Virus record (IMG/VR): IMGVR_UViG_2529293044_000013
From: a virus
Taxonomy: Monodnaviria > Loebvirae > Hofneiviricota > Faserviricetes > Tubulavirales
Length of the DNA stretch: 4,509 nt
Reading direction: 5' to 3' (one strand)
Below are positions 1 through 399 of the stretch, piece by piece. Positions within the stretch are counted from its first letter, which is position 1, and each line of letters begins with the position of its first letter. Position numbers and translations under genes: made by a program. Below the pieces are notes generated by a model. The model was not told where the DNA came from and did not search any database. It saw nothing but the letters and a program-made list of their open reading frames with translations.

Positions 1-247
1 CATCAGGCACTTTCTGCTCAGTCTGCTTTATCACTGAAATGTAATCCACGCCATCCTTCATCGACGTGACGCTGATATTCAGGCGTTTAAGGTATGAAAT
101 AAAAAAGCTTCGCGGCTCCTGATTTTTACTCAGATAGAAACTGACAAGTCTTGTGTCTCCTGCAATATCCGGCGACAACTGATAAGGGCGATTAAAAACC
201 CGTTGCCAGACCATGCTGATAACCTGAGGTAAAGGCGCATTGTCCAT
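1..247 (-). CDS. Hypothetical protein, N-terminal part only (runs off the left edge). Sits where an inovirus assembly protein (pI/Zot-like) gene would be expected, but the first ~80 residues have no Walker A motif.
   Basis: Minus-strand frame is open from a TGA at 260-262 to position 1; the other two minus frames contain stops within 1..128. ATG at 247..245 is preceded by GGAG with ~7 nt spacing. Translation begins [35 protein letters not shown]... Overlaps the 130..399 ORF out of frame. Not in the ORF track, which lists only complete ORFs. Confidence 0.3.
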
Positions 248-399
248 TGACATCTCCAATCAGGAAGATGAGTCACAATCAACGGAAGAACTTCTACAAC
301 CATAATATAAATTGCAGAGAACATTACAAACTTAATGAGTGCAGTACGAAAAATAAAACCAAGAGCAGTATTTATTGCAGCAATAAAAATGGCAAACAT
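130..399 (-). CDS. Small hydrophobic membrane protein, pVI-like minor coat protein candidate (89 aa)
   Basis: ORF in supplied track. Strongly hydrophobic N-terminal half ([35 protein letters not shown]...). RBS-like GGTGGTGA upstream of the ATG. Lies immediately after the pIII-like gene, the position pVI/Ace occupies in known inoviruses. The C-terminal ~40 residues overlap another open frame, so the true 3' end is uncertain. Confidence 0.5.

Follow-up and report, generated by a model that had tools for sequence, protein, structure and literature searches.

The 4,509-nucleotide stretch of viral DNA analyzed here (IMG/VR record IMGVR_UViG_2529293044_000013; hereafter "the window") appears to be a damaged copy of a filamentous (inovirus) prophage of Escherichia coli. 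In the course of this damage, a deletion of 1,301 bp would have fused codon 47 of a pVI-like minor coat gene to codon 30 of a secretin gene, out of frame, and the entire Zot/pI assembly-ATPase gene that lies between the two would have been lost with it. What looks like the next gene after pVI would then be the true frame of the decapitated secretin, which is still open and is entered at an internal methionine (Met34). The 118-nt overlap between the two open frames would represent two readings of the same leftover secretin DNA. We put the probability that a deletion accounts for this whole pattern, including the pVI-secretin fusion, the loss of zot and the Met34 frame, at roughly 93%.

The overlap itself is readily described. 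The ORF listing of the window includes an 89-amino-acid ORF that begins with ATG and occupies positions 399..130 of the minus strand. A second minus-strand frame begins at the ATG at 247..245 and remains open for 82 codons, up to the left edge of the window. The two share positions 247..130 (118 nt) in different frames, and a GGAG sequence at 257..254 precedes the second ATG by six nucleotides. These coordinates had been given, with an accurate description of the overlap, in an earlier sequence-only reading that likewise saw no Walker A motif. Our search for the pattern [AG]xxxxGK[ST] bears this out, yielding zero matches in all six frames of the window. An out-of-frame run of 42 open codons is statistically unremarkable. 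What counts is the point at which the match to relatives is lost, exactly 258|259, inside the 89-amino-acid ORF. The features of the window are as follows.

1..258, minus strand: pIV/GspD-type secretin remnant, from the second position of codon 30 to codon 115, running off the left end; 100% identical to L001 4442-4699.
130..258, minus strand: nonsense tail of the chimeric 89-amino-acid ORF, consisting of 42 secretin codons read out of frame and a chance stop codon at 132..130, as given by frame arithmetic and translation.
245..257, minus strand: ATG corresponding to internal Met34 of the secretin, with GGAG within codons 30-31 (GTG GAG), assigned by translation and comparison with relatives.
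258..259, no strand: deletion junction, at which the window lacks 1,301 bp that all relatives have (L001 4700-6000).
259..399, minus strand: native 5' part (first 47 codons) of a pVI-like minor coat gene (DUF2523), whose 47 residues are identical to those of the 95-amino-acid DUF2523 protein of L001.
417..2012, minus strand: intact pIII-like adsorption protein of 531 amino acids; the exact protein occurs on 10 public contigs, and its C-terminal part has PHROG matches.
2322..2573, minus strand: major-coat-like protein, matching phrog_2186 "virion structural protein".
2751..3086, minus strand: protein of 111 amino acids at the position of the ssDNA-binding protein, assigned by gene position.
3096..4165, minus strand: Rep_trans-type replication initiator that has lost its first 127 nt (~42 codons), matching phrog_453 "replication initiation protein" (E=1e-101).
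4166..4509, plus strand: left end of IS100 (IS21 family), covering its terminal repeat and the beginning of istA; boundary set by comparison with intact sequence.

The minus strand of the window thus reads as an inovirus gene series. Intact copies of this dif-associated prophage are present in E. coli, both in strain AST20 (NZ_AP043617.1 1784030-1790787; positions labeled L001 are those of our AST20 locus) and on contig JBNDDJ010000131.1 (L008, from assembly GCA_053258375.1). They are 99.4-100% identical to the window over its content and carry rep, the ssDNA-binding-like gene, major coat, pIII and pVI in the same order. Unlike the window, the intact copies retain a 1,301-bp interval in which pVI ends, zot follows with its Walker A motif and the secretin gene begins. 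They also lack IS100 in rep, with the possible exception of L008.

We located the break by BLAST and by direct comparison of the flanking sequences with L001. Window positions 1-258 correspond to L001 4442-4699 with 100% identity, and positions 259-971 correspond to L001 6001-6713. The same two-segment pattern recurs with loci L002-L014, and every locus that reaches past base 258 has the intact sequence. The missing interval contains the last 48 codons of pVI, the complete gene for a 352-amino-acid Zot/pI protein and 88 nt from the start of the secretin gene, which correspond to its first 29 codons, including the signal peptide. Direct observation covers the break in collinearity, what each flanking segment is, what the interval contains and the frames in which the sequence reads. 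By this comparison, the window appears to carry a blunt deletion of 1,301 bp at 258|259. No microhomology or repeats were found at the end points when the flanks were compared with L001, and the blunt join gives no hint of the mechanism. The arrangement in the window is derived rather than ancestral, because three genes that are complete in every relative are truncated or absent here.

The deletion also appears to be private to the source of the window. When positions 1-700 were compared by megablast with 5,426 complete E. coli genomes, 27 genomes matched positions 259-700 only, with 99.5-100% identity. Positions 1-258, searched separately, matched the same 27 genomes at 100% identity, but at a different place. 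In none of the 5,426 genomes are the two sides of the junction adjacent, and the overlapping arrangement is absent from all 27 matching genomes as well as from every fetched locus that spans the region. An exact 32-mer across the junction matched nothing in contigs of the GTDB one-genome-per-species set or in JGI metagenome contigs, and a 26-mer was similarly without a match in the 21 fetched loci. The exact 531-amino-acid pIII protein of the window is encoded on ten public contigs, and in 10/10 it is followed immediately by the trio of 95-, 352- and 419-amino-acid proteins. Among public contigs the nearest is L008, which matches window positions 259-4161 and 1-258 with 100% identity and has the 1,301 bp in place.

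Two loci invited a closer look. The zot region of L014 seemed shorter than that of other relatives, and this is explained by two 100-N scaffold gaps. A 13.3-kb Logan contig from SRR490938 (L015) ends, at its position 1, on the base equivalent to window 258. This is probably a coincidence, as the look-up is biased toward contigs that end within ~15 nt of the point in question, although the end could also reflect a branch of the assembly graph at the breakpoint in that sample.

The gene content of the intact relatives clarifies what should follow pVI. The AST20 locus is annotated with three proteins, a DUF2523 protein (95 amino acids; L001 5854-6141), a 352-amino-acid zonular occludens toxin domain protein (L001 4784-5842) and a GspD-like secretin (419 amino acids; L001 3528-4787). 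Both gene junctions are ordinary, with a spacer of 11 nt from pVI to zot and 4 nt that zot and the secretin gene share. The intact Zot protein bears the Walker A sequence GVPGSGKS at residues 8-15, which is where the sequence-only reading expected this motif, and matches PF05707 with 81.8 bits, and its nearest counterparts in the phage collection are Zot proteins of gut-metagenome inoviruses with ~39% identity. Judged from these relatives, the gene order of the family is canonical, with pVI followed by Zot and then by the secretin. The Walker A motif is thus missing from the window because the gene that carries it has been deleted.

The 89-amino-acid ORF shares exactly 47 N-terminal residues with the intact DUF2523 protein and then diverges. 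Beyond residue 47, the ORF runs for 42 codons through secretin DNA, two bases out of register. The intact 95-amino-acid protein of L001 matches PF10734 at 37.7 bits (cut-off 22.1) and also matches phrog_974 "minor head protein". The 89-amino-acid ORF has no Pfam or PHROG match and does not reach a full-length match to PF10734. We consider this ORF a chimeric pseudogene, composed of 47 native pVI residues and 42 nonsense residues. A protein look-up by exact sequence did not return the chimeric product, which is a weak negative given that a gene caller might skip such an ORF.

The frame that begins at ATG 247 can be assigned as well. Its 82-amino-acid translation is 100% identical to residues 34-115 of the 419-amino-acid secretin, and the matching region of L001 lies within the gene annotated as "type II secretion system protein GspD". 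Among the PHROG families, the fragment matches phrog_1012, "assembly (protein IV of M13)", with E=1.9e-12 over profile positions 26-102. It matches no Pfam family at E<=0.01, and thus does not match PF05707. The intact protein carries both PF00263 (Secretin) and PF03958 (Secretin_N). The C-terminal PF00263 domain is found in all relatives, and the equivalent part of the gene would be located further to the left than the window reaches.

The ribosome-binding-site-like GGAG upstream of ATG 247 belongs to secretin codons 30-31 and is common to all relatives. It is a fortuitous context rather than the mark of a real gene start. The intact gene begins at an ATG 99 nt upstream of Met34, in a 4-nt overlap with the stop codon of zot. 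This start codon and the codons for the signal peptide fall within the deleted interval and are absent from the window. The deleted leader reads MKLITVFFSFVLLSFFSPAYA, followed by VSE..., and its signal peptide was recognized by eye. From what is known of inovirus biology, a secretin with Met32 or Met34 as its first residue would lack a signal peptide and should be unable to reach the outer membrane.

Secretins of 386 amino acids that start at Met34 are present in public protein sets. We considered these proteins as possible traces of the deletion and rejected them, since their source contigs either start within the gene or have a homopolymer frameshift, and zot is intact upstream of each such call that we traced. 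The homopolymers in question, found in several public assemblies, mark the beginning of the secretin gene, where a T7 run in the signal-peptide codons is shortened to T6 or T5, or an A5 run at the zot stop codon is shortened to A4. These variants occur at ~6450 in L012, ~190 in L017 and ~7400 in L013, which is equivalent to the deleted interval just past window position 258. Gene callers then place the start of the secretin at Met34 (386 amino acids), and one of the variants is found on 88 contigs. The length changes could be sequencing errors, pseudogenization or slip-strand switching.

These assignments bear on how the overlap had been explained. The sequence-only reading sensed a lesion and was right to expect a pI/Zot gene after pVI, but none of the three causes it proposed proved correct. 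One of them was a gene order that differs from that of canonical inoviruses, such that the frame at ATG 247 would encode a divergent pI/Zot-like protein that lacks an N-terminal P-loop and naturally overlaps pVI. The expectation from synteny and the GGAG located six nucleotides upstream of the ATG speak for such an arrangement. However, the relatives have a normal Zot gene between pVI and the secretin gene, and the overlap occurs in none of them. In addition, the supposed pI protein lacking Walker A is residues 34-115 of a Secretin_N/Secretin protein with a match to the M13 pIV family, and its product does not match PF05707. No P-loop follows later in the frame, and the relatives that span the region do not share the overlap. 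We consider a non-canonical gene order exceedingly unlikely. A single-base frameshift in an otherwise intact pVI gene, whether programmed or due to a sequencing error, deserves just as little credence. The ORF does turn to nonsense once its 47 native residues end, but the DNA past this switch is not pVI DNA in a shifted frame. It belongs to the secretin gene, at a distance of 1,301 bp in the relatives, and the window contains neither the other 48 codons of pVI nor any of zot. The lesion is thus a deletion of 1,301 bp and not a point frameshift. The remaining suggestion, that the 130..399 ORF really ends earlier, does not hold either. The 3' half of pVI is deleted, and the residues past 47 derive from the secretin gene.

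The deletion is known from the sequence of the window only, and its biological nature is the sole real uncertainty. The junction at 258|259 might instead have arisen through chimerism of a read or contig, through misassembly or through editing, with two non-adjacent parts of an otherwise intact prophage joined artificially. The junction occurs in no other public sequence searched, the closest public contig is 100% identical on both sides yet intact, and the relatives often reside in tandem arrays that are hard to assemble. On the other hand, repeat-driven misassembly joins homologous sequences, and there is no homology between the two sides of this join. The same copy also has a second, independent lesion, the IS100 insertion in rep, and so looks as if it were already decaying. 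Private deletions are common in defective prophages, which we also count against an artifact. On balance, we judge an artifact improbable, although it is the alternative that most deserves to be kept in mind. Whether the junction is real or artifactual, the region is a pseudogenized prophage remnant and not a new gene arrangement.

It is also conceivable that the copy is functional as a helper-dependent element, either defective or a satellite, in the manner of f1 miniphages or of the RS1 element of CTXphi, with intact sister prophages in the same cell supplying pI, pVI, pIV and Rep in trans. The relatives occur in tandem or in multiple copies, at 2-8 places per genome, such that helpers are possible. 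However, the window does not provide evidence for a helper in the same genome, and its lesions, an out-of-frame fusion and an IS element inside rep, look haphazard. Moreover, the region with the origin and packaging signal would be situated past IS100, in sequence that the window does not cover. We regard this scenario as very unlikely, if slightly less so than a frameshift or a non-canonical gene order. If it were true, a doubly damaged copy that keeps the major coat and pIII genes would represent a natural "miniphage"-like parasite in an E. coli tandem inovirus array.

The second lesion affects the replication gene. The rep ORF reads as 3096..4199 in the window, but homology to the intact 398-amino-acid protein ends at 4165 (L001 9961), whereas the intact gene starts at L001 10088. 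IS100 interrupts the gene at 4165|4166. The IS100 segment has matches in 2,759 E. coli genomes, under annotations of an "IS21-like element IS100 family transposase". The junction between rep and IS100 is absent from both contig collections (genome and metagenome) and from the complete E. coli genomes, and the truncated Rep protein is not on record in an exact look-up. The L008 contig ends four bases short of the boundary, which hints that this strain may share the same IS100 insertion.

Under the deletion reading, the consequences for the prophage would be severe. Because it has no pI, a truncated pVI and a secretin without a signal peptide, the copy is presumably unable to assemble or export virions on its own, and the IS100 insertion in rep would similarly preclude autonomous replication. 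The functions of genes I, IV and VI are established for the Ff phages. By analogy, the loss of pI/Zot would leave no inner-membrane assembly motor, and a pVI protein with a nonsense C-terminal half is unlikely to be functional. The process is a known one, namely prophage decay by deletion and IS insertion. Other degraded filamentous prophages, such as truncated CTXphi/pre-CTX arrays and Pf remnants, have likewise had assembly genes deleted and genes disrupted by IS elements, and the analogy extends to the process only. For annotation, the 89-amino-acid ORF and the ORF downstream are best recorded as pseudogene fragments of pVI and pIV that flank a deleted zot. They are neither a new overlapping gene pair nor an atypical pI, and their importance beyond correct annotation is small. 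The prophage copy should be scored as defective, with no assembly ATPase, no exportable secretin and a rep gene disrupted by IS100. The case illustrates that an expectation from synteny can fail through deletion, and that a near-identical intact relative settles the matter at once.

The intact relatives share with the VI-I-IV module of the Ff phages (M13/f1/fd) the order of minor coat protein, Zot/pI P-loop ATPase and outer-membrane secretin, and the secretin fragment of the window matches the PHROG family that is named for M13 pIV. Sequence similarity between the Ff phages and the phage in the window is only remote, and megablast against deposited phages and plasmids returned only IS100 matches, with no deposited phage matched outside this element. 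A literature search for a dif-integrated zot prophage of E. coli found nothing on this phage by title or abstract. The phage in the window also differs from the Ff phages in being a prophage with an adjoining dif-like site. We found this site as a 28-mer at L001 3241-3268, with one mismatch to what we take to be the E. coli dif sequence, and it lies ~260 bp past the secretin stop codon in AST20. The AST20 prophage is present in tandem copies with a period of ~7.95 kb (L001 3528-11480; also L002 and L003), and matching places number 2-8 per genome. The dif-like site and the tandem copies suggest XerCD/dif integration, and the setting resembles that of other inoviruses that integrate by XerCD at dif.

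The remainder of the gene series also merits some comment. The pIII-like gene includes a Gly/Ser/Thr repeat linker at ~770-960. This tandem repeat varies among the relatives (L001 6584-6767), giving products of 531, 537, 543 and 549 amino acids, and in this region the window is 54 bp shorter than AST20. Two small minus-strand ORFs of 57 amino acids (2573-2746) and 56 amino acids (2017-2187) lie where minor coat or regulatory genes are typically found in inoviruses. Neither has a PHROG match; the 56-amino-acid ORF is annotated as a hypothetical protein in the relatives, and the 57-amino-acid ORF is unannotated in AST20.

The module from the coat gene through pIII, pVI and zot to the secretin is combined with two alternative replication modules. 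Over window positions 259 to ~2752, identity in this module is 97.6-99.4% (loci L004, L005, L009, L010, L013 and L014). One replication module, which is that of the window, consists of Rep_trans (398 amino acids) and the 111-amino-acid protein. The other consists of an IS110-family transposase, a Phage_GPA protein (667 amino acids) and a 141-amino-acid protein. This distribution looks like modular exchange between inovirus prophages.
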